Assembly: GCA_034780895.1 (NCBI GenBank)
Contig: JAUZTB010000068.1
Location: 7,905,753-7,969,752 of the forward strand
Source of the DNA: Rhynchobatus australiae
Taxonomy: Eukaryota
Reading direction: 5' to 3'
DNA length: 64,000 nucleotides
Part shown: positions 4,125 to 57,655 of the stretch, piece by piece
How the letters are laid out: every line of letters begins with the position of its first letter
Position numbering within the stretch: the first letter of the stretch is position 1
The notes under the pieces: generated by a model
Database searches by the model: none
Seen by the model: only the letters and a program-made list of their open reading frames with translations
What the model was told of the DNA's origin: nothing
Translations under genes and position numbers: made by a program

Positions 4125-4570
4125 GATACTTATTTATTAGTAACATGTACATCGAAATGCACAGTGAAATACGTCTTTTTGGGTAGAATGTGCTGGGGGC
4201 AGCCCGCAAATGTCACCACACTTCCAGCACCAACATAGAATGCCAACAACTTCCTAACCTGTACGTCTTTGGAATGTGGGAGGAAACCAGAGCACCCGGA
4301 GGAAACCCATGCAGACATGGGGNNNNNNNNNNNNNNNNNNNNNNNNNNNNNNNNNNNNNNNNNNNNNNNNNNNNNNNNNNNNNNNNNNNNNNNNNNNNNN
4401 NNNNNNNNNNNNNNNNNNNNNNTTTGGAATGTGGGAGGAAACCAGAGCACCCGGAGGAAACCCATGCAGACATGGGGAGAACGTACAAACTCCTTACAGG
4501 CAGCAGTCGGAATTGAACCCAGGTCGCTGGCGCTGTAATAGCGTTACACTAACCGCTACGCTACCGTGCC
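4125..4570 (-). mobile_element. V-SINE, full length, interrupted by a false gap
   Basis: Reverse complement of 7308-7590. 55 bp is duplicated across the gap (4268-4322 and 4423-4477). Confidence 0.88.
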
Positions 4571-5189
4571 ACATCTGTGGAGGGAAATGGACAGTTGACG
4601 ATTTGGGACTGAGAGTAGAGGGGAGGTAGCCAGGATAAAGAGGCAAGGGGGAGGGTGGTTTGGGGCAAGTGATAGGTGGATCAAAGCGAGAAGGGGTTGA
4701 TTGGCAGATGGTAAATGAACAGTGGGGAGAGGAGACCCAGTAGGAGGAGTGTGTGGGTGATGGGCAGATGGAATAGGTGCAGGAGGGGAAAGAAACTGGG
4801 AGACAGGGGTATTGGGGGGTATACTGAGGGCAAGACTCTTCTGCTTGTGCAGAACCTTGCATCAAATGGTTTCAATGCTGGGAAACAAATATGGTCATGT
4901 GGTACATAGTCACAGGTAAGATGGGCCAAATGGCCTCCTTCTGCACTCTGTCCCATTTTTGAATGAACGCAGAGTTTGACTTACATCTCTATTTTCCTCA
5001 TACATGTATGATTAAATTCTCTGATGATCACTGAAGAAACATTTGTAACTAAAAGACTAATGTCAGAGTCAGTGAGCTATGCTACCTGTGCATTCATTAG
5101 TGCTGGAAGCAACATGGATTGTGGCTCTGTGCTTCTCTCCTGCTGGCCGAAAGTATAATGCATTAGTATTACATACACATGTAGATCAG

Positions 5190-5740
5190 CAGCAGAAGTA
5201 GTTCACTCAACACTCAAGTCCATATTCAATAAGCTGATGACTGATCTGAATGTAACCTCAGCTCTGTGTTCCCATGGTAACCTTTCACCCCTTCCATATC
5301 AAGAATCTATCTACCTTCACCCCAAAGAAATTTCAGAGACTCCACTTTACTGGCCTTTGAGCAAGAGAGGTTCAAAGACTCACAACCCTCTGAAAGAATC
5401 CCTGGTTCTAGATTCTCCCACAAGAGGAAACCTCCTCTCCACATCCACCCTGCCAGAACCCAATCAAGTCATCTCACACTCTTCCAAATTCTGGCAGATA
5501 CAAACCTAGGCTGACCAACCTTTCCTCCTGTTCCAGGAGTTAGACCAGCAGATCTTTTCTGAACTGAATCCAATCAATTCATTAACACCTCCAATCAATT
5601 CATTAACACCCTTCCTTTAACAAAGAGACCAATACTGTACATAGTACTCCAGATGTGGTCTCACCAATGCCCTACAGAACTGAAGCATAACCACCCTCTT
5701 TTGTGTTTAATTTCCTTAGCAATGAACAATAACATTCAAC
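5190..5740 (-). mobile_element. Degraded CR1 LINE 3' fragment
   Basis: catagtactccagatgtggtctcaccaatgcc is the reverse of the CR1 motif ALVRPHLEY. Confidence 0.7.
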
Positions 5741-6066
5741 TTTAGGTAGCTCCCTCATTCTATCCGTATCACAACTGGTCATTTCTGCCACAGGTCCTCC
5801 CCGTGTGATATTAGCTCAGTTTTTTCTCTCTCCTCCGCGTTCAACACCATCATCCCCTCAGTACTAATCAACAAGCTTCAAAACCTGGGCCTCTGTACCT
5901 CCCTCTGCAACTGNNNNNNNNNNNNNNNNNNNNNNNNNNNNNNNNNNNNNNNNNNNNNNNNNNNNNNNNNNNNNNNNNNNNNNNNNNNNNNNNNNNNNNN
6001 NNNNNNNNNNNNNGCTGGGGTGGGCCAGGCATTGAGGTGTTATATCCTGAAGTTGTACATTGTTAA

Positions 6067-6120
6067 TGTGTGCTTGTGTGTATCAGTGTGTGTGAGTGTG
6101 TGTGTGTTTGTGTGTGTATG
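6067..6120. repeat. Imperfect (TG)n microsatellite
   Basis: tgtgtgcttgtgtgtatcagtgtgtgtgagtgtgtgtgtgtttgtgtgtg. Confidence 0.85.
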
Positions 6121-6544
6121 TTACCCCAGTTGCAAATCCCCTCTCGTGCTCGTGGTATCCTGCGTGTGAGTGAGCGTGTGTCTGTTCCCATCCATTCCGT
6201 CCCTGTTTTTGACTAGTTTTGGTCCACAAAGCTCATGTTCCTGAATTCTCTATCCTTAAGACCGGAAAGCTGGGAGGGGGGGGGGGAGTCAATAAAGCAA
6301 GACTGATGAGGGATCAAAGGGCTAAGGGAAGAAACGGGCAGAGGCCACACGTATGGTCCCAGGATGGGATGTTTGTCTCCCTGGTGCCAGGGTCAAGGAT
6401 GGCATTGAACCGTGGTACAATCTTGGGGTGGGATTGGCATTCATGTTGATACCAATGACATGGGTAGAAGGATTAAGGTCGTCCTCACGGATTTGGAGGT
6501 GGGAAGAACTTCATGGTCCTGGGCCAGTCCTCGATGTTCAGGCC

Positions 6545-6915
6545 CAGGGGGATCTCATTAAAACCTACCAAATACTCGAAGGCCTGGATACAGTGGACGT
6601 AGAGAGGATGCTTCCATTGGTAGGAGAGTCCAGGATCCGAGGGCACGGCCTCGGAATAAAGGGACATCCCTTTAAAACTGAGGTGAGGAGGAATTTCTTC
6701 AGCCAGAGGGCGGTGAATCTGTGGAATTTGTTGCCACAGAGGGCTGTGGAGGCCAGGTCATTGGGGGTATTTAAGCCAGATAGGCTCTCGGTTGGTGAGG
6801 GGGTTAAGGGTCACGGAGGGAAGGCAGGAGAATGGGGTTAAAAATGATCAGCCATGATTGAATGGCGGAGCAGACTCGATGGGCCGAATGGCCTAATCTG
6901 CTCCTATATCTTATG
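6545..6915 (+). mobile_element. CR1 LINE 3' end, relatively young
   Basis: GDLIKTYQILEGLDTVDVERMLPLVGESRIRGHGLGIKGHPFKTEVRRNFFSQRAVNLWNLLPQRAVEA, then the tail gatgggccgaatggcctaatctgctcctat. Confidence 0.92.
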
Positions 6916-7307
6916 GAAATGTTATTAAAAGACAGGACTTCAGAAGTTAATGTGCTGAAATGGAGTAGTCTCTGGAGATATCAGTGAGCACAGCCACGTG
7001 CGGCTAAATGCAAACCTGTTGAGATGATGTAGGAGGGAGGGCTATGGTTTCCTTGGGGTGGTGGCACCTACTATACCAGGCGGGCAGACTGCACCTCAGC
7101 AGCATCGGGACCAGTGTTCCATCTGGGACACTGGAGAGGCTTTCAACCAGGTTGGAATGGGAATGGGAATATGTGTATTGTTCTGAAGGGGAAGACCCAG
7201 AAACGCAAGGCAGAGAGTTAGTAAGGTGAGAGGGGAAGGATATAAAGAGGATGTGAGGGGGCAACCTCTTCATGCAGAGGATGGTGCGTATATGGAATGG
7301 CATGGAA

Positions 7308-7595
7308 GTGTAGCGGTTAGTGTAGCGTAATTACAGCGCCAGCGACCCGGGTTCAATTCCGGCCGCTGTCTGTAAGGAGTTTGTACGTTCTCCCCGTGTC
7401 TGCGTGGGTTTCCTCCGGGTGCTCCGGTTTCCTCCCATATTCCAAAGACGTACGGGTTAGGAAGTTGTGGGTGTGCTATGTTGGCGCTGGAAGCGTGGTG
7501 ACACTTGCGGGCTGCCCCCAGAACAGTCTACACAAAAGATGCATTTCACTGTGTGTTTCGATGTACATGTCACTAATAAAGAAATCTTTTCTTAT
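7308..7595 (+). mobile_element. Full-length tRNA-derived V-SINE
   Basis: Head gtgtagcggttag, B-box ggttcaattcc, V-domain gtttgtacgttctccccgtgtctgcgtgggtttcctccgggtgctccggtttcctccc. Confidence 0.9.
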
Positions 7596-7639
7596 CTTCT
7601 CTAGTAGTTATTTAGTAATAAACCTTGAAATACATGCTC

Positions 7640-7948
7640 GCAGTATTTTTCCCAGGGAACGGGAATCAAAAACTAGAGGGCATAGACATAAGGTGACCTG
7701 GAAGGATTTGAAAGGGACTTGAGGGGAAACTTCTTCATGGAGAAGGTGGTGCTTATATGGAACGAACTGCCAGAGGAAGTGGTTGAAGCAGGATACATTA
7801 CAACATTTAAAAGACACTCTGACAGGAGCACGAGTAGGAAAGGTTTGGAGGGATATGGGCCAAACAGAATGGCTTAGATGGGAATGTGGGTCGGCACAGA
7901 CGTTGGGCTGAAGGGCCTATCTCCATGCTGTAGTGCTCGATGACTCTA
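7640..7948 (+). mobile_element. CR1 LINE 3' end
   Basis: FPRERESKTRGHR, tggaacgaactgccagaggaagtggttgaagcagg, and the CR1 tail. Confidence 0.85.
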
Positions 7949-8169
7949 CATATAACATCACCAGATGTGTGATTTTCTTTTGTCCCTGCTATTTTGTTGG
8001 AAATAAGTTACCTCATTAGAGTTACTGATAAAATGGTAACAGAACATTGTGAAGTACTAGTTTTTACAGTAATTTACAGCCTTGAATCTTTTTAAGAATT
8101 TGAAAACAGGAAAGATTCCGACATCGAAATGAAGAAAGGATAAGCTGAACATCAGTGGGGAAGCTCTTG

Positions 8170-28164: not shown

Positions 28165-29290
28165 TAAAACATAGAACAGTACAGTATAGGAACAGGCCTT
28201 ATGATGCCAAGCTAAACCACTTCCATCTACATGCACATGGTCCGTATCCCTCTATTTCCTATCTTTTCACGTGTCTGTCTACATGCCTCTTGCACGCATC
28301 TGCTGCTACCACCTCCCCTGGCCGTGCATTCCAGGCACTTACCACTCTGTGTAAAAATACATTTCCTGTACCTCTCCTTTNNNNNNNNNNCACCCTGGGA
28401 AAAAACATAACTACCCCATCCATGCCTCTCACCCCTCAGCCTCCAACACTCCAGAGATAACAATCCAATTCGTCCTACCTCTCCTTGGAGTTAATACACT
28501 CCAATCCAAGCAACATCCTAGTGTGGTGAACCTCTTCTGCACCCTCTCCAAAGTCTCCACATTCTTCCCATAGTGTGGAAACCTGAACTGCACGCAATAT
28601 TCTAAATGTGGTCTAAATAAAGTTTTATACAGCTGCAACATGACGTGCCAACTTAAATACTCAACATCCCAACCGATGAAGGCAAGCATGCCGTAAAATT
28701 TATTTACCACCTTATCCACGTGTTGCCACTTTCAGGGAGCTATAGACTTGCACCCCAAGATTTTTCATATATCAATGTTCATAAGGGTCCTACCATTTAC
28801 TTTCCTCTTGTATTTGACCTGCCAAAATGCATCACCTAATTTGTCTGGATTAAACTCCATCTACCATTTCTCTATCCACATATCCAGCTGATCTATATCT
28901 TGCTGTATCCTTTGACAACCTTCCTCACTGTCCACAACTNNNNNNNNNNNNNNNNNNNNNNNNNNNNNNNNNNNNNNNNNNNNNNNNNNNNNNNNNNNNN
29001 NNNNNNNNNNNNNNNNNNNNNNNNNNNNNNNNNNNNNNNGCTGTATCCTTTGACAACCTTCCTCACTGTCCACAACTTCTTTAATTTACATGTCATCCAC
29101 AAACTTCTGAATCAGCCGACCTACATTTTAATACAAATCATTAATGTATATTACAAACAACAGAGGTCCCAGCACTGATCACAGACCCCCAATCAGAAAA
29201 ACACCCCTCAACCATTACCCAGTCTTCTATGACCAAGCTATTTTCGGATCCAATTCACCATGGTTCCCATGTGACTTAATTTGGTCTTCC
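28165..29290 (-). mobile_element. CR1 LINE 3' ~1.1 kb
   Basis: LYKTLFRPHLEYCVQFRFPHYGKNVETLERVQKRFT and VVDSEEGCQRIQQDIDQL. Confidence 0.92.
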
Positions 29291-38266: not shown

Positions 38267-38660
<394 letters not shown>

Positions 38661-39421: not shown

Positions 39422-39495
39422 CTGGGTGGATTAGCTTCCAATTCCTGGAGCTTCTCTTCAAGCTTCACCTGGGCCTCTGCAAGTTCATCATATTC
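39422..39495 (-). CDS. KDM1A: KDM1A exon 12: EYDELAEAQVKLEEKLQELEANPP
   Basis: 74 nt, ttccag / gtattg. Confidence 0.98.
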
Positions 39496-41739
39496 CTGGA
39501 ATGGATTCAAATAAAATGAACTGGTCACATAATAAAAAGGAATTTAGTGGGACTGTGTGGAATGAATAAGCTGCGTTCCTGCAACCTGGTTGGACTCTGG
39601 CCCAGACTGACAGACTGGAATGTCATCTCTGAATTTCCAAAGTCTAAGAGGACAGAAACTTCAATCCAGATTCCACTGACATGAATATAGCTCTATCCCA
39701 AAAACCTGCCTGGACCCAAACTCAAAAATAATACTCTACTTCACAAATATTAATTGTTTCTAGATACTGCCTTTAATATCCTGCAAGTACATAACCAATA
39801 CTCTTGTATCAATCCACAGTACCATCTACTTCAAAAAACAATTTTAAACAACAATAACTTGTGCTCATACAACTGCCCCAGACTTGATGAAATGCCCCAA
39901 GGTGCACAACGTGAGTATTACTGTACAGAAATTGGCAAAATTTAACATCAAGCAACAAAAAGAGAAACCAGACAAATAACAAAACACTTTGCAAATTGGC
40001 ACAGGATCTTTTTGATCAGAATTGAATGTGTGGCTCAATGATTAGTCTGAGAGAAATGGGTTTCAATTTATGGAATGCTGGCATCAGCATTGGAAGTTGT
40101 CTTGATGGGTTGGGACCAGTGCCTGAGCAAATCAAACAATTAAGTCCAAGGACAAGGCTTTAAATTAAACAGTGATTGTGGGGGAGAGCAGGGGAAATTT
40201 AGAAAGTAAAAGAGAAAGGGCAAAGTAATAGTGCAGGTAGTAAAACAGATAATGATAACCAGAGTCTATCAGCAAGGAACAGAGCATACAGACAGAAAAA
40301 TAGACCTCCAATGCTCCAAACGGAATCAGAGGGAAAATGGTTAAAAAAGACAAAGCTGAATGTATGCAGTGATCATAATAAGATATGAATTAAATGGCAC
40401 AAATAGAATTAAATGGATACAATCAAATAGCCAATACAAAGACATAGTTACAAAATGACCCAGGTTGGAAATTAAATATACCAGGATACTTAATTTTTAG
40501 AAGAGATAAATCAATATGGAAAAGAATGAGGTGTGGTCCAACATAATAACAAAGGGGATAAAGGCAGCAGAAAAAAAAAGTGCAAATAGAGCTAATAAAC
40601 AGCCAGGAGCAGAATATTTTAGAGGGAATTATCTATATGTCCCCCAGCAATAGTGATAATTTTGGGCATTGATTAAATCAGAAATTAGACTCACATATTA
40701 AGTATGAACAACTTAATCATGAGAAACTTTAATCTACATAGACTGGGCAAACCAAGTAAGCAGCAATTAAACGGACAGCAAATTCAAGAGTGGAAAAGAA
40801 ATGGCTTTCTAGGTCAGTTTGGTGAGGAACCAATGAGGAAACTGGACATTTTAGATCTCATACTGTGTAACAAAATAGAGTTCATTGATGATTGGTTGTC
40901 GAGGGGTTTCTGAGAAAGTGATCAAAAATGAAAGAATTTTCTGTGAAGCTTGGAAGTAATTTAGTTCAAACTAAAATTGGGGTCTTAAACCAAAACAAAG
41001 CAACTACAAAAGTATGAAGCACAAGNNNNNNNNNNNNNNNNNNNNNNNNNNNNNNNNNNNNNNNNNNNNNNNNNNNNNNNNNNNNNNNNNNNNNNNNNNN
41101 NNNNNNNNNNNNNNNNNNNNNNNNNCAACTACAAAAGTATGAAGCACAAGATGGTTATGACAGATTATGTTAATTCTTTTAACTATGTTAAAAGTTAAAA
41201 CAATAAACAAGCATTAATACGTAATTTACAACAAATATACAATAAAAGGCTGGTGTACAAGATAACAGCTCACAGTACTGAGGGGAAGTGTGTTAGCATG
41301 GATTGAAGTATGCCTTCCATATGATAATCAGAGAGTCAGAATAAATGGCTTTTTTTGTTCAGGCCGGAAGGAAGTAACATGTGAAGTGTCCCAAGAATCA
41401 GTGTTCTTGGAAGACAGAATACCAGAACTACTGGAGAAAAGGTCCAATGCAAATGAAGAAAGCATGTATTAGTGAAAAACAATGTGAAGATGTTAAAAAT
41501 CCTGAAAATTGATAAATCCTCAGGAGCTTGGATGCAAAGACCAGAGTTTTGATAGAGGTGATTACGTGTAGTACTTGGATCATCTTCCAAATTTCAATAG
41601 ATTCTGTAAGAGTTCCTGCGGATTGAAAAGTGGAAAGTGTGACCCCAGTATTTAAGAAAGGAAGATACAAAAGAAATATAGGGAACAAATTGACCTGTCA
41701 GCCTGTCACTGATAATAGGGAAAATGATGCAGCTCCCTA

Positions 41740-42150: not shown

Positions 42151-42992
42151 GGATGTAATATCATGAAACCTGGAAAATAATAAATCTGATTGAACAGAAT
42201 CAACATGGATTTGTGAACAGGAAATTACGTTTGGCTATTCTACTGCAGTTCTTTGAGGACGTAACAAGTAGATAAGGAAGAATAACAGGCAATGTATAGA
42301 TATTTGCCCACAGGAAATTGGTGAACAAGATTACAGCACGTGCCGTCAGGGGGAATACACAAATTTTCTCCCTTTTTCGCCCCCCCCCCCCCCCCAGAGA
42401 AAGATGATAAAAAGAGTAGGAATAAATGAATCCATCTCTAATTGGCAGGCAACAGTGTACCATGTGCATCAATCATTGGGCCCCAGCTATCCACGATCTA
42501 TAGCTACGATTTGACTAAGGAGACCAAATATAATACTTCCAAATTTGCTGATGACATGCAACTAAATGGGAATGAGAGCAGCAGTGAGGATGCAAAGAGG
42601 TTTCAAGGGCAATAGATAAACCAAGTGTGTGGACAATAACATGATGGACAGAATATAATCTGCATAAATGTGAAGTTACTTCAGTCGGAAGTAAAACAGA
42701 TGCTGAGTATCTTTTAAATATAGTGATTTTGGGAAACGTTGATATATAATGGGTCTTCCCTATATGTAAGTCAAAGGGATCTCCCTGTCCACAAGTTACT
42801 GAAAGTTGACATGCAGGTATATTGAGCAACTTGGAAGGCAAATGCTTTGTTGTCTCCTGTTACAAGAGGACTTGAATACAAGACTAAAGATGNNNNNNNN
42901 NNNNNNNNNNNNNNNNNNNNNNNNNNNNNNNNNNNNNNNNNNNNNNNNNNNNNNNNNNNNNNNNNNNNNNNNNNNNNNNNNNNNNNNNNNNN

Positions 42993-43044
42993 CTTTATTT
43001 AAGCGTTTCTCAACCTTCTTCTCCTGCTTTAGCCGTTCCCTTTC
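42993..43044 (-). CDS. BAZ2B: BAZ2B-like next exon, 5' part, truncated by assembly gap: ERERLKQEKKVEKRLNK(E)
   Basis: Acceptor ctcaaag. Matches the following BAZ2B peptide EKERLKQEKRDEKRLNKE. Runs into the 100-N gap at 42893-42992. Confidence 0.82.
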
Positions 43045-43434
43045 CTTTGAGTATTAACAGATTGCAACTTACTTTTTTTTAATATTATTATGTATCAGGC
43101 CATAGAAATGCATTCAGGTACAATGATCCTTCATTAAAAGTTACTTAAACTACAGAATAATCCCATTTTCAAAGGAACTGATTAATGTATCACACTGTTC
43201 ACTAAAATAATTGCACTCCATTGAAATTACATGTAGAAGTTCAAAGCCATTGATACAACTGTTAATATCGATACATCTGTGATAAGGTGAGCTTAAAGAC
43301 CAAGTAAGCAAGCTATATTATCATAGAGATTCTTTGAGTCTCACAGTTAAAATTTATTAAAGTAAGTAAACAATTTTAGTTAAATACATTACACAACATA
43401 TAAACCATGCGCAAGCAATGTGTTTAAACTGGCA

Positions 43435-43630
43435 TCCTCACACTTTATTTGTCTACCTACACTGCACTTTCTCTGTAACTGCAACACCATATTCTGCATT
43501 CTGTTCTGTTTTTCTTTTTACTACCTTGACGTAATTATGTATGGCATGATCTGTCATCTGCTACACAAAACAAAAGCTTTTCACTTTATCTATCTCAGTA
43601 AATGTGACAATAATAAACTAATCCAATCCA
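43435..43630 (+). mobile_element. Rex1/Babar LINE 3' tail within the BAZ2B-like intron
   Basis: gcactttctctgtaactg...ctgcattctg...atgtgacaataataaac. Confidence 0.75.
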
Positions 43631-43834
43631 ACGGTCATCCTGAGCCAAAGGTCTTGATTCTGTGCTGTGTTGTTCAATTCTAAGATAAACTAACAAAATA
43701 TGGCAAGTTATTTTAACGTACATAAACTGGACAGCATTTATTACATTAGATTCCTGAGGAAATGCACTTTAAACAGTCACATGCTTTCCTGTTCATTCTA
43801 GAAATAATATTTGTCAATGCACTGTCTTACTTAC

Positions 43835-43900
43835 TTCAGCTTTCTTCCGGGCTTCCATTGCTTTCATGAGCATCATATGTTGCCTTCTCCTCTCCTTTTC
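43835..43900 (-). CDS. BAZ2B: BAZ2B-like coding exon EKERRRQHMMLMKAMEARKKAE, out of context inside KDM1A intron 11
   Basis: 66 nt, ttgttag / gtaagt, phase 0-0. Nearly identical to the BAZ2B coiled-coil peptide ERERRRQHMMLMKAMEARKKAE recalled from human. Confidence 0.88.
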
Positions 43901-46874
43901 CTAACAACGTACAAGATAAATTTCAGGTTTAAATAGTTAGGTATTGATATTATTGTGTAGTTTAAAGTTTAAAAATGTATTTTTACTATTTTTTTTAGAA
44001 TAAGTTAGACAATCGTGAACAGTTTAAAATAAAAACAGACAATGGCCAAGTTTGTGTACATTTTAGTTGAGGATTAGGAAATAACATGGACAATCAAAAG
44101 CAAAACAGAAAAAGCAACAGATGTAAAGACAGTGTAAAACGAAAGCGTATGCTTTAAGTTATGTACATAGTTCTTGGAAAAGCAGAGCAAATCAGTGCGA
44201 TGCTTCTCCATAGCTGTCAGGTATAAAGCGCAATGGTCGGCTTCAACAGGCTAATTACCTTACATCTGCTTCAGTCAAAAATCATTTAGCAAAAGGCCAA
44301 TTAGTATAAATTATCTGTTGTAATTAGCCAATTTTGTAAAATGTTATTACCTACATATCTAGGTTTTAATGCAAGATTGAAATCAGTCTTTCAGAACATC
44401 AACTACAGAAAAAAAAATTAACCTATCCCACATCAATTCTTTATTGAAGAATTCACTACTTTATCATGGTATGCTCATTTTCCAGCAAACAAAATTATGC
44501 TATTGACTAATATTACAAATTCAAAATTTAGAAGAGAAGGAACTTGAGGGCTAGGAGGGTGGTATAAGGAAGCAGGATAACTTAAGTTATATTTAATTAT
44601 TCTTATTTGGATCTATATGCATAGGATATTGGGAAACCCTTATTTATGACCATCATATTAATGTCATTATTACCCCCAACCTTTCCATGCTGTAAATTGC
44701 TTCATGCCCATGACAGATATCAGCTTTGTGAAGTTACCATATATATTGTTATGCATCAAATTTCCATCTCCAAACTCCTTAACTGCAGAAAAACTACTGA
44801 ATTACAATCAACCTTACTTGTTTAATAGCAATGCTTTTCTATGAAAAATTTTATAATGGCATCATGTGAAGATATCTAAATAAGACACATAAATTAACTT
44901 GCCCTGATCCACTTATCCCTCTCCCTCTAACTGCATTTCACTTTAGTATCCTTGGTCCAGACACTCCATATAAAATGCCACAGGAGATCAAGTAACAAAA
45001 CTAAAATTAAATTCACATCTGTGAACAAAGGTATCTGTGAACAAAGGAGCTATTTATCTGCAATCATCTTCAATTTGAAATATTAAATATGTATGGCATT
45101 CATACAGAAAATGAAGTTTCATATATTTTATTTATTATTTTGCTTTGTTAGATAGTAGAAGCCAGGAAGATATTTTGGGAATAAACATACAGATATATTA
45201 TCATGAAATTCCACTCTTAGTGATACTATAATTGGAAAGAGTAGATTATAGGCATATTTTGTTATTCAAAACAGAACATGCTGAGAAGTCTGTCTTCACC
45301 TGTTTACTGAAAGATGGGCGACTTAAATGAATTGTGGTTAAGGTTGAAGAAATTTTCTCAAATTTGGTTTGCTGGAATGGCATTGTTCTGGGATGTAAAG
45401 AATAAACTTTAATAGAATGTGGGACAAGGGAATGAGTTGTGGTAAAAAAGATTGAACATTTATAGGCAGTCTAACCATTTCTGAAGAACTGTAACTAGTT
45501 TCAGAACTTGTATATTTATCCTTTTGTTGTCTCCTGTTACAAGAGGACTTGAATACAAGACTAAAGATGTCTTATAGTTACATATGGCCTTGGTGACACT
45601 GCACCTGGATATTGTGTACAGTTTTGGATTCCTTATCTCTAAAAGGATAAACTTGCTATAGAATGCAGAGAAAGTTCATCTGACTGGTTCCTGGGATGGT
45701 GGGTTTGTCACATGAGGAGAGATCAAGTAGGCTTGGTCTCTGTTCTCTGTATTGCGGAGATACAAGAGGTAATCTCATTAAGATGTAAAGAATTCTTAGA
45801 GAGTTCCCTAGAAAAGCTGGATGGATGTTCTAAATAGATAAGAGGTTGGCCCTTTAGGACGGAAATGTGGAGAAATTTCTTACTTAGGTGGTGGTGAATC
45901 ATTGGGGTTCTCTCCCTCAGAGGGATTTGGGGAATGGGTACTTGATTGCATTCAAAACAAAGATCAATGAATTTTTCAAAATTATAGTGTCAAGGTATAT
46001 AGGGAAATGTCAGGAAATGGTGGAATAGAAGATCAAACATCACCTTGTTTAATGCTGAAGCAAGCTCAAGGAATCAAATGGCCTACTCCTGCTCCTTTTC
46101 CTACTTTTTACATCCTTTGAAACAGAGGTAAGGATTTTAAACTAAAGGATTATAAGAAAGGAACTTCTGGGGGGGAGAAAATCAGTGCAATGAGTGAATA
46201 AGACTTGGTGTTACCATATGAGGTACAAAGAATAAAAGCCAAGGAGGGCAGAACATGGATGTTTGCCAGCAGGGAAACTGAAATTATCACCTGGATATAA
46301 TAAATGCCTGAATGAGGGTTTCAATAGCATGCACACTGAAGCAGAGATATCTGTTGAAACAGATATTGGTCCTATAAATTAGCATTCAAATTGAATTTCT
46401 TTACAAATAACTCAAAAAATTGCCTCCTATTTCTAAGGTGAGAAGAAGTTACCTTCCAAAATTATGCAGAATTGTTTTAAGCTTAATTCCATACTACTCA
46501 ATTTATTATCAGCAATTAACTATTTTTACATTAATTTAAAAAAACAATTATTTCTGATTTCAGGGTTCTCTGCAAATTCAAATATACCAATGGCGGGACA
46601 CACTTAAGAGGAAAAGCATATCAAAATTTAACACAATATACTGTCAGTCATCAGCATTTTCAGAAGCCATGAGGACCTTTTCTGAAACCAGCACATTCAG
46701 ACAAAATACTAAACCGTGAAATAACATTCAACCCCGATTCACATGCCCACCAAACTTCCTCAACAGAAAGGGTAATACAGAAAGGGGAAAACAAAACTAA
46801 GATAACGGTTAAAGGGAAATAAAAATAAACATTGCCAAACAAATCCCAGAGTATGACACATATAGTAGTGCTTA

Positions 46875-47111
<237 letters not shown>

Positions 47112-51204: not shown

Positions 51205-51347
51205 TGTATGACAACCTCCAATGCCTGTCCTAATGATACAGGTTTGTTGTTCAGGTAGTTGAAGTCTAATTGATGACTGAGGTAAGATGTGGCCTCCAGC
51301 AAACGATTGAATTCTTGCTCTACCATCTCATCTTTTTCTTTGGGAAC
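51205..51347 (-). CDS. KDM1A: KDM1A exon 9: [47 protein letters not shown]
   Basis: 143 nt, gctcag / gtgagt. Confidence 0.98.
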
Positions 51348-51799
51348 CTGAGCATCATAAATAAGACACCATTGTCACCCAAAAGAAATAAGACAGGATC
51401 ATTTATTTATACAATAATTAATAATACCAAGCTTTCCAATTAATTAGTGTTTAGCAGTAGTTTGCGCTTATGGGGTTGCACACCCAAAAATAGGTCACAA
51501 ATCTCTGAAGATTTTTTTTTACAGTTTTCCAAATGTGGAAAGAACTGCCTATTTTTGAGGCTCCTATTGGCTGAAGTAAATACATTCAATGCACATGACA
51601 AAATACCAAAATAAAGTAAAATATCAGTCGTCGTGACATCAACACACAAAAACTATAATGTGTGATACAGTTCACATGTAGGAAGAGTGAATTTGGAAAC
51701 TCAACCACTAAGGAAAACTGAGGTTCCTCAAACCCTTAGGGCTCCATGGTAAAGTCACTGAATAATCATGTCAACCTGTCATTTTCTGGGCTAGAATTA

Positions 51800-52095
51800 A
51801 AACATAATGGAAATACTCAGCTCATCAAGAGGCATCTGTGGGGAGAGGAAGGCAATTAATGCTTGAGGTCAACGACCTGTATCACAACTTGGAAAAGTTA
51901 CCAGTAAAACATGTTTAAGAGGTGCAATAGTTGAATCTTCAAACCAAATTTACTACCAACTTTTTGCCATTCTGATGAAAGGTCATCAACTTGAAACTTT
52001 AATTCTGCTTCTCCTCCAGAGATGGTGCTTAACCTGCTGAACATTCCATCATATTTTACTTCAGATTTCCAGGATCTGCAGTATTTTGCATCTGG
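51800..52095. mobile_element. Palindromic Penelope-derived repeat with hammerhead-like core (51972-52003)
   Basis: CTGATGAaaggtcatcaacttGAAActttaat, then tctccagagatggtgcttaacctgctga. Confidence 0.65.
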
Positions 52096-53084
52096 GAAGA
52101 TAAATCTTATCCACACTTCAGTCTGGCTTAACTTTGATATTATTTTAAATGCTAGTGATTAGTTCCCATTTTTGTGCAAGAATGTGGGGAGATTTTGCAA
52201 CTGCAAGTGGTGTGCCAGATAAGCATAAAGTAATCCAAATAACAAAATAAAGCTGATCAGAGGTCCTTTTAACCAAATGCAGCTTATCCACTTGGTAATA
52301 AACAATCCCTATCCTGGAAAACATCCTGTGCTTTTGTCTCCAAACCTTAACAAATGCAATGTTTGTCAGAAGATGTATGTTGGACACTAAATTGGCAATA
52401 AAAATGTAAAACCACGTCACACAAGGAGGACAACAACAGTGGTCACCACGAGCCACGACAAACCAGAGGACCTCAACTCAAGGTTAACGTTCTTTTGAAC
52501 ACTCAGAGAGGAAGATAAAGAATTTTAACATTACTAATTAATTTAGGTAAAGAAATTCTGGATTAGTTAAACATCTAATGCATCCTTTTGAAATGAAATC
52601 CAGAATTGGGATGAGAGGTCATGAACAGTCTATTAACTTTTATCGTCAATATTGTCTGAAATGTCCCAATGAAGGGAATTCTGACCAATAAACTGCAGTT
52701 ATAATAATAAACATTCTACTAAAACCCAATGCAATTTTACCCTATTGTAACTGTTCTCTTATAAATTCTCCTGTCCCCATATTTTCAGCTGCAAATTACA
52801 AAGCTGAGTTTACAACCTTCTAATTGTCTAGATGAACACATCTCCAGAAACACTTAAACTTGTCACCATCAAGGAAAATGCAGCCATGCTACAGTCCTTG
52901 TGGTAAAGGTATTCTGACACTGCTATGAGTTAGTGAGTCCCAGTGTGTTGCTCCAGCAATGATAAAGAAATGCTATTATATCTCCAAGCCAAGATGGTAT
53001 GCAAATTAGTGAGGATATCATGGTGTCCATAAATGTATCTACCTCCTTTGGTCAAGGAGGCAGGGACTGCAGACAGAGTAATAC

Positions 53085-53635
53085 AGCATGAAAACCACAA
53101 TCCCTTCAGCAAAGCTTGTCCATGCCACCCACCAAGCCAGTCCCATTCGCCCATGTTTGGCCCATATCCCTCTAAACCCGTCCTATCCTTGTACTTATCC
53201 AAATGTCTCTTAAATGCTGTTATTGTACCTGCCTCAACCATTTCTTCTGGCAGCTCGTTCCGTACATGCACCACCCTCTGCCTGAAGAAGTTGCCCCTGC
53301 AGTCCCTTTTAAATCTTTCCCCTATCACCTTAAATCTATGCCTTCTAGGTTTTAAGCTTCCCTTCCCTGGGAATAAAGATTGCGTGTATTCACCTTATAT
53401 CTACCCCTCACAATTTTATACACCTCTATAAGGTCACCCCTCAATTTCCTATGTTCTAAGGAATTAAGTCCTAGCCTGCCCAACCTCTCCCTACAACTCT
53501 GGCCCTCAGGTCCTGACAGCATCCTCATAAATCTTCTCTGCACTCTTTCCAGGTTAATGATGCCTTTCCAATAACCAAAACTGTACACAGTACTCCAAGT
53601 GCAGTCTCACCAATGCCTGGTACAACAGCAACATG
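53085..53635 (-). mobile_element. CR1 LINE 3' end in KDM1A intron 8
   Basis: LERVQRRFMRMLSG...LRGDLIEVYKIVRG and RGNFFRQRVVHVRNELPEEMVEAGTITAFKRHLDKY. Confidence 0.92.
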
Positions 53636-54484
53636 TGTGTCGGTAAGCGATAGAATCTTGAGGGAGTTGATGGGAATATGGGAAGAATAAAATGAGATGA
53701 CTATAAATGGGTGTTTGATGGTTGCATAGACTTGGTGAACTAAGAGTTATTTCCATGTTGCATCACTCTCTGACTCTAGGTACCAGGCAATGACCTTCAA
53801 CAAGGGGGAGAGAGTGTAGCCACCTCCCCTTACATTCAATGTTATTACCATCTCCAAGTACAGCCTCACCAACATCTTGTACAACTACAACATAACAACC
53901 TTTGGAGGTCCTGTCAAAGGAGCTATGGCAACTTGCTGGTGTGCATTTTGTAACCGATGTACATTGCAGCTGCAATGCACCCACAATGAGTGCAACTAAA
54001 TGTTCGGTGTGGTGGGTAGAAGCCAATGGAGCTACTTTATCCTTGACAGTGATGAGTTTCTTGAGTGTTTCTGGAGATGCACTCATCCTGAATGAAGCAA
54101 CTGATTCTTTTTCTGGGTCTCAAAATACCATAAATTTTCCTATTTAAAGAGATTTTAAAGTAACAAAAATAAGGACAGAAAACTGAACTTTAAAAAAAGA
54201 ATGGGGAATGAATGATCTCCACCTTAATAGTCAAGTTATATCCGGTTTTAGTTCAATCCTGGTTTGCTCTTTGTGTACAACATCAGAAATTCCCCAGTAT
54301 TACCTACACAATTGCCAGTGATTAGATAAAATTGATGCAACTCAGATCACTGTTATAGTGTACACTTTGTAATCAGCTAAAATCCTAACATCCTCAAACA
54401 ACTGCAAATATCTTGCACTCCCAAATATCTGTTGCTGTGAGATTTCATAATATATGCCTAATTAGTAAAAGTAAAAATACGTAC

Positions 54485-54502
54485 GTTTGTGCATCTTTCT
54501 CC
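54485..54502 (-). CDS. KDM1A: Candidate alternative microexon 8a-like (GERCTN)
   Basis: Minus strand reads cactaataaatctttcccctttttttctatgtcattgctgatgtttggaatctgatcctaatgaag|GGAGAAAGATGCACAAAC|gtacgt. It is 18 nt, phase 0-0, and lies between NGQA and VPKE. Confidence 0.8.
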
Positions 54503-57478
54503 CTTCATTAGGATCAGATTCCAAACATCAGCAATGACATAGAAAAAAAGGGGAAAGATTTATTAGTGTCTTGACCCCGTGACCACATTTTGAAGTATTC
54601 AACTTTTAAAGAAATTCCTTATCACACCTCTCAAGACAACTCAAAATACTTAATATGCAATTAATTACTTGCTTAATCACCACTACCACGTAGATTAAAT
54701 ATGGCAGCCACTTTGCTTAAGACAAAACACCACAAAACAGTAATGAAAATTAATAAGTAGTTAATCAAATTCTTGGAGCCTTGTTTGAGAGAACATTGGT
54801 CAGCACCAAACTGGGGGATCTTTCTGCTTTACCCTCATATTGTGATAGTAGTTTATGGTTAGTAACTTGGAAGGCAATCAGCACTTCGAGTTTTCCATCT
54901 CACCTCAAAAGGTGGCATCTCTAACAAAGTAGCATTTGCTCAGTATTGTACTGTAATATCTGACCAGAATCCGCATTTAGGTTTAAATCACTTCTGACTC
55001 AAAAGCAAGAGGGTTATGAGTAAGATCATGTTCAATTCAATGAAAATCAAAATATTTCTCATTCTTTCAATGAGCATGTGCAATACAGTGCATACCAGGT
55101 TGAAAAGGTTTAACTCAAGGTTATAATTTCACAAGTAATTCTCAAGGATCTTACTAACCAGTGAACATACAGTTAGAATATTTATAATTAATCAGCTGAT
55201 GAAAATCATTAACCTACAAGGTTAAATGTTTCTCTCTTTATTGATGCTGCTTGGCCTGCTGAGTATTTCAAGCTTTTTGCTTTTATTTTATAAATATCAT
55301 AGTACAATGTTCCCAAACTACAAAGGATATTATTCTTTAGATCATAATTCTAGATAAAGTCTCCTAGATGTGGCTAATTTAGGATTTTCAGCTCATAATA
55401 CAACAGTGGAAAAAAAATTATGACAACAGAACCAGTTAATTTTTAGGAGTCTTACTACTACTTAAATTATTTTCAGTAACTTTACTTATTATAAAGTAAA
55501 TCTNNNNNNNNNNNNNNNNNNNNNNNNNNNNNNNNNNNNNNNNNNNNNNNNNNNNNNNNNNNNNNNNNNNNNNNNNNNNNNNNNNNNNNNNNNNNNNNNN
55601 NNNNNNNNNNNNNNNNNNNNNNNNNNNNNNNNNNNNNNNNNNNNNNNNNNNNNNNNNNNNNNNNNNNNNNNNNNNNNNNNNNNNNNNNNNNNNNNNNNNN
55701 NNNNNNNNNNNNNNNNNNNNNNNNNNNNNNNNNNNNNNNNNNNNNNNNNNNNNNNNNNNNNNNNNNNNNNNNNNNNNNNNNNNNNNNNNNNNNNNNNNNN
55801 NNNNNNNNNNNNNNNNNNNNNNNNNNNNNNNNNNNNNNNNNNNNNNNNNNNNNNNNNNNNNNNNNNNNNNNNNNNNNNNNNNNNNNNNNNNNNNNNNNNN
55901 NNNNNNNNNNNNNNNNNNNNNNNNNNNNNNNNNNNNNNNNNNNNNNNNNNNNNNNNNNNNNNNNNNNNNNNNNNNNNNNNNNNNNNNNNNNNNNNNNNNN
56001 NNNNNNNNNNNNNNNNNNNNNNNNNNNNNNNNNNNNNNNNNNNNNNNNNNNNNNNNNNNNNNNNNNNNNNNNNNNNNNNNNNNNNNNNNNNNNNNNNNNN
56101 NNNNNNNNNNNNNNNNNNNNNNNNNNNNNNNNNNNNNNNNNNNNNNNNNNNNNNNNNNNNNNNNNNNNNNNNNNNNNNNNNNNNNNNNNNNNNNNNNNNN
56201 NNNNNNNNNNNNNNNNNNNNNNNNNNNNNNNNNNNNNNNNNNNNNNNNNNNNNNNNNNNNNNNNNNNNNNNNNNNNNNNNNNNNNNNNNNNNNNNNNNNN
56301 NNNNNNNNNNNNNNNNNNNNNNACATAGGAATGTATATTTATACATGATGCAAGTGATAGAAGTGATATGCTCAATAAAAACTTTGTAACCAAAACATGA
56401 AAGGATTTGAGGTTCAATCAAACATTAAAACTTGTATGCTCTTACATAGCTACAAGATTTCACCTTGGAGTTGAACAGAACCCAGTATTAATGCAACAGA
56501 TACTCCACGGAAGTGTTAGTGTCTCTGTCAAGAACTGCCCATAGTGCCAGGAGCACGGCACTGGTGCTGGCTTTACCTGGCAGTAGCAACTTCCACAGTG
56601 CTGTCATTGCTAGTACTCTGGGAGGCAGGGTGGGTCTCCACCCAGTCCTGTGCAGAAATGGAGACTTTCCTAACTGGGTGCCTCTGTGGCATCAAACTGT
56701 GTGTCATCCCAAATCAGCCTGGTAAATAGGGTAGTTGGGACTAGAGCTGAGTTGACAGCGCATACAGCAGAGTAGAAGCACTGGGGAAACTAGGGGAGCA
56801 TTCTCACACAATCCATTATAGCATGTTTACACTCTCAGCTCTGCCAGTCAGACAGACTTCTATTTATACAGCTTCCTCAACCAGAATTAAAACATTTAAA
56901 GCAGCTGCACAGTAGCTGCTACTATACTGCTTACACCAATGGCTACCAAGTACTTGACTGGAAACCAAAGGTCTCTGAAATTTATTTTGTTTTTTAGCAG
57001 AAGCAGCTATGGCCACTATCCATCAACAAATAAGCTGTCAGGCCATCACTTTTATAACAACAGCTAACTCTCAGAGCCACATGTCAGGGCCATTTGCAGC
57101 CACGTTTGTACCAAGGTACGGAGAGATCAGCAGGAGACTGTGCTGGTCAGCAGGCAAATGGCACTCGACTAGCATAGGAGTGGTTCGGGGACTGCTGAGA
57201 TATCAATATTAGCCAATTAAGATGATAGAGGATCAAACTTGTCCATTTGGCCCCACCCAAGCCCCACTGTTGTCATGGGCTAGCTCCCAACCTATCAAGT
57301 ACTCCAGTCAATGATGTAATAGTGAATCCTGAAATAACTAACTGAAATTCCCACTGAGAAGCACTCATTTTCCACAGGCTGCATGGCAATATATAGCAGA
57401 TGTTTGAACCAAAGGATAAATTAACTAGATACATGCAAGTATAGAAAATCATGTTATATTTGCAATCATCATCCATCA

Positions 57479-57655
<177 letters not shown>

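Follow-up and report, generated by a model that had tools for sequence, protein, structure and literature searches.

The window analysed here, a stretch of 64,000 nucleotides (G000:C68:7905753-7969752), carries part of the gene KDM1A, and one KDM1A intron in it holds two exons that look like pieces of another gene, BAZ2B. Do these exons represent an exon capture in the animal or a mistake in the assembly, which comprises 2.23 Gb in 81,522 contigs and has 23 N-gaps in the window? The initial annotation of the window favoured a chimeric contig or mis-scaffolding, and its leading guess is supported by a hole at the BAZ2B locus on another scaffold (C1) and by a contig of a related species in which the same intron lacks the inserted DNA. 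The exact fit of the block to this hole, together with the block-free intron of the relative, makes an assembly error very likely, and we are nearly certain that the block is a misplaced BAZ2B contig and not a case of exon capture.

The block spans 42993-45522 on the minus strand (2,530 bp). It contains a 66-nt exon of phase 0-0 (43835-43900, minus strand), which has intact AG and GT splice sites and encodes a 22-aa peptide, and, after an intron of 790 nt, the first 52 nt of the next exon (42993-43044, minus strand), which starts after an AG and is truncated by a placeholder gap of 100 N (42893-42992). The end of the left contig before this gap (42846-42892, plus strand) is a 47-bp sequence that is repeated exactly at 45523-45569 (plus strand), and the true KDM1A intron resumes at 45523. 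The junction between the block and this right copy (45522/45523) has no Ns. All these positions of exons, intron, gap and repeat had been given by the initial annotation and are borne out in the sequence, as is its reading of the block as genomic DNA: the 790-nt intron between the exons rules out a retrocopy. The G+C content of the block (0.32), compared with 0.38 and 0.36 in the KDM1A flanks and 0.36 and 0.37 in the C1 flanks, is uninformative, and a Pfam search with the 22-aa exon found no family. The repeat around the block is presumably a CR1 element.

The host intron lies between two KDM1A exons on the minus strand, an upstream one at 46887-47018 (human LSD1 residues 449-492, E 2.6e-20) and a downstream one at 39422-39495, which was located by translation and whose 3' end is approximate. 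We take this intron to be intron 11 and the affected region of the protein to be the Tower domain. The GT donor at 46887 and the AG acceptor at 39495 both fall between codons, and the adjacent KDM1A exons of the window are present and in order. Thus, the earlier observation that a 0-0 exon sits in a phase-0 intron is confirmed on both sides. Exon shuffling, or exon capture, proceeds by intronic insertion of symmetric exons, and such an event would look like what is seen here, with the splice sites intact and a phase 0-0 exon in a phase-0 intron.

The origin of the exons is evident from protein comparison. The first peptide of the block is identical to coelacanth BAZ2B (P0003) at 21/22 positions (residues 1015-1036) and the second at 14/17 positions (residues 1037-1053), and the median identities over the 116 listed proteins of at least 500 aa are also 21/22 and 14/17. 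The exons are therefore consecutive in BAZ2B and precede the exon of the DDT domain (residues 1084-1169), in agreement with the initial annotation, which had placed them before that domain and had preferred BAZ2B to BAZ2A pending a peptide comparison. A BAZ2A origin was considered and is ruled out, since P0098, which is a shark sequence with the label BAZ2A-like, is identical at 6/22 and 4/12 positions. A DDT-domain search of the same genome scored 33 candidates and gave three matches, on C62, C1 and C94. The DDT exon of C1 is nearer P0003 (67/86), whereas that of C94 is nearer P0098 (68/85). Moreover, a protein search with the C1 exon returned 386 matches, and the named proteins among the best 120 of the 386 are nearly all BAZ2B. 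Taken together, the DDT and peptide comparisons assign the C1 locus to BAZ2B, the C94 locus to a BAZ2A-like gene and the block to BAZ2B, as judged by sequence similarity. The third locus (G000:C62:5184172) consists of a single large exon encoding the DDT domain and then a PHD-like cysteine pattern, and presumably resembles BPTF.

The BAZ2B locus on C1 is interrupted just where the block would be expected. Exons for P0003 residues 946-966, 966-988 and 989-1003 follow one another in order, and the last one, a 33-nt exon that we read by eye as residues 1004-1014, is followed by a gap of 2,654 N (C1:37073046-37075699). Beyond the gap, the sequence restarts within an exon, at residue 1069, with 11/12 identities over 1069-1080; this remnant is the last 36 nt of the interrupted exon, and it ends in a GT donor before the DDT exon for residues 1084-1169. 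The block encodes residues 1015-1053, which are absent from C1, in correct order and orientation, so that the exons of C1, the block and C1 again are colinear with vertebrate BAZ2B (P0003 of coelacanth, P0074 of chimpanzee) through P0003 residues 946-1169. Unlike vertebrate BAZ2B, residues 1054-1068 were found in neither the block nor C1, either in the comparison with P0003 or in a protein search of the same genome. These residues less one base account for 44 nt, provided that the exon is as long as in coelacanth, and subtraction of the block and this remainder from the gap (2,654 - 2,530 - 44) leaves 80 nt. From the protein order and the gap size, the block very likely belongs in the C1 gap.

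The assembly appears to hold this piece of BAZ2B in a single copy. DNA searches of the same genome with 43700-44100 and with 43950-45522 gave one match each, namely the window itself. Similarly, a protein search with BAZ2B residues 1015-1098 (E up to 10) scored four candidates. Its three matches were the exon in the window, the remnant on C1 beyond the gap and the BAZ2A-like locus of C94. A second copy of the block was not found among the best candidates scored, which a much-diverged copy could escape. The initial annotation had reasoned that a BAZ2B locus without these exons would indicate misplacement, and the single copy and the 2,654-N hole on C1 are just this. Its alternative of exon capture is not supported. 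Capture by duplication should leave a BAZ2B copy at the donor, where a hole was found instead. In addition, the neighbouring BAZ2B exons on C1 likewise end at codon boundaries, and for this reason the matching phase is uninformative for capture. In contrast to captured exons, this one has no remaining donor copy, equals a hole in the assembly and is missing from a relative.

A single copy and a hole at BAZ2B would fit a true translocation in the sequenced animal, with the piece moved from BAZ2B into KDM1A, as well as they fit a misplacement. However, the C1 gap has been sized at 2,654 bases, and we infer from how scaffolders estimate gap lengths that DNA of this length was still present between the flanks in the linking data. 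A true excision would join the C1 flanks, and the move would have cut BAZ2B in the middle of an exon. We consider such a translocation extremely improbable. Another sized gap, of 1,800 N, lies downstream in the BAZ2B locus (G000:C1:37094551-37096350), where further exons of the gene may be absent or misplaced.

The 47-bp direct repeat on both sides of the block and the N-free junction at 45522/45523 could instead be taken as traces of a real event, namely a recent duplication by which the KDM1A intron received a 2.6-kb copy from BAZ2B; the near-identical copies would then have been collapsed, placed here and replaced by a gap at BAZ2B. The intact splice sites and the phase 0-0 exon in a phase-0 intron would also be in line with it, and if it were true, the 66-nt exon could be spliced into KDM1A in frame. 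To judge the repeat, we surveyed the gaps in 464 kb (the window, 200 kb around it and 200 kb of C1) for exact copies of the flanks of at least 15 nt. Such flank duplications occur at 20/50 gaps of exactly 100 N, compared with 1/112 gaps of other length. Thirteen of the 20 are flush with the gap and seven are displaced. The four flush cases in the window (4268-4477, 28902-29077, 38411-38558 and 41001-41150), which repeat 55, 38, 24 and 25 bp of the left flank, respectively, are unmerged contig overlaps. Because the same pattern is found at 20/50 gaps of 100 N, a target-site duplication was set aside as the origin of the 47 bp, and the repeat is most readily explained by two overlapping contigs that were not merged, an assembly signature. 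The duplication would also have to coincide with a hole on C1 that matches the block to about 80 nt.

The element flanking the block may read through once the block is skipped, as is weakly suggested by one other copy of the repeat, on C1, which is colinear with 42799-42892 and 45537-45719 (weak matches, E 0.036 and 0.13); at E 1e-4 or better, the search for repeat continuity gave self pairs only. The last 323 nt of the block matched nothing but themselves among the loci searched. We examined four other displaced cases with an offset of more than 300 bp, three from the survey and one from the BAZ2A-like locus on C94, and foreign DNA was demonstrated in none of them. In two of them, 107-137 nt resemble the opposite side of the gap at 88-95%, which makes these pieces look like adjacent alleles. 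A third has 55 nt in common at 91%, and the fourth, with 41 matches, is an ordinary repeat. Thus, the block is the sole proven foreign piece among the displaced cases examined.

Public sequence contigs give a view of the site apart from this assembly. Of 24 sequencing runs listed, none of them of RNA, the contigs of four were compared with the window (X1, X2, X3 and X13, the last one a run with a small share), of which X1 is perhaps from the assembly's own sample and hence not independent, and X2 is from another organism and study, a related species. A single 1,984-nt contig of X2 aligns by its letters 6-444 with 42407-42845 and by its letters 445-1,984 with 45523-47072. It represents the KDM1A intron with a single copy of the 47 bp and with neither gap nor block. 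This one contig, in 1/4 runs, reads through the host site with no block in it, and since it comes from a relative, it shows the older state only. The initial annotation had expected that sequence spanning the site without the block would point to an artefact, and the X2 contig is such a sequence, albeit from a related species; it also speaks against the duplication. A contig of the same species over the site is absent among the matches listed, as the duplication would allow. No piece of X1, X13 or X3 among these matches crosses 45522/45523 or 42845/45523, and the listed pieces of X1 end at 45265 and restart at 45605. At the other end of the block, a 791-nt contig of X2 aligns by 172 letters with 42993-43165 and continues past the gap edge for 619 more, which are not among the matches listed, and a 543-nt contig of X1 continues for 65 letters past that edge.

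Read depth over the block had been proposed as a further check. The contig depths of X1 are 5.3, 5.5 and 6.6 in the block and 9.9, 7.3, 6.9, 2.5 and 6.7 in the KDM1A flanks, so the depth is not doubled in the block. This part goes against collapsed copies, but weakly, as contig depth is no copy number. Taking both sides together, we regard a real duplication as very improbable. Its most far-reaching form, a very recent species-specific duplication with collapsed copies in which a coiled-coil exon of BAZ2B is spliced in frame into KDM1A, adding 22 residues to the helical stalk of LSD1, is a shade less credible again.

The misplacement of a BAZ2B contig could have arisen as follows. Two contigs of the KDM1A intron that overlap by 47 bp would have been kept apart by 100 placeholder Ns. 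During gap filling or contig merging, the BAZ2B contig would then have been fused, without Ns, to the right-hand one at 45522/45523, while the scaffolder had probably already reserved about 2.65 kb for it on C1, where it belongs. By this mistake, a real single copy of a 2.5-kb BAZ2B piece would have been attached inside the KDM1A intron, leaving BAZ2B on the other scaffold with a hole of matching size. Both genes, KDM1A and BAZ2B, would be ordinary and intact in the animal itself. BAZ2B exons inside KDM1A are very likely not a real feature.

Excerpts of a preprint on vertebrate genome assemblies (bioRxiv 10.1101/2020.05.22.110833) describe contig boundaries as sites of false duplications, which may be mistaken for duplicated exons or genes, in tandem or translocated, and give about 5,000-8,000 mis-joins, chimeric joins included, for short-read assemblies. 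As far as these excerpts go, our case resembles such mis-joins and false duplications of draft vertebrate genomes: a short sequence is duplicated exactly next to a gap, and foreign DNA mimics an exon translocation. It differs from the false duplications described in the same excerpts (10.1101/2020.05.22.110833) in that the block is moved, not duplicated, and is missing from its own locus. Among the matches listed for these genes, the titles and abstract openings contain no fusion or chimera of KDM1A and BAZ2B.

The consequences are practical. The gene model of BAZ2B on C1 lacks residues 1015-1068, which matters for users of the assembly only, and a gene finder could add a false exon of 22 residues to KDM1A. 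In this genome, a 100-N gap with a flank recurring nearby indicates overlapping contigs; the DNA between the copies should be held suspect and its home locus looked up first.

Similar arrangements were seen elsewhere. In the BAZ2A-like locus on C94 (L014:5947-6455; G000:C94:2049947 on), a 100-N gap is followed by a 378-bp piece, after which 31 bp of the left flank recur. The last 107 nt of this piece resemble the left flank at 95%, as two alleles set next to each other would. Displaced flank copies also occur at three further 100-N gaps, G000:C68:7998016, C68:8007418 and C1:36844602, with offsets of 822, 402 and 541 bp, respectively; the piece at the 402-bp offset is an ordinary repeat.

KDM1A in mammals carries a neuronal microexon. 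A strict pattern (in-frame AG..GTRAG) found no such exon of 9 or 12 nt in the corresponding intron (51347-57490 of the window), a result that is uninformative given the strictness of the pattern and an 819-N gap in this intron. One 15-nt candidate microexon lies in the same KDM1A intron at 53884, inside repeat-like sequence.
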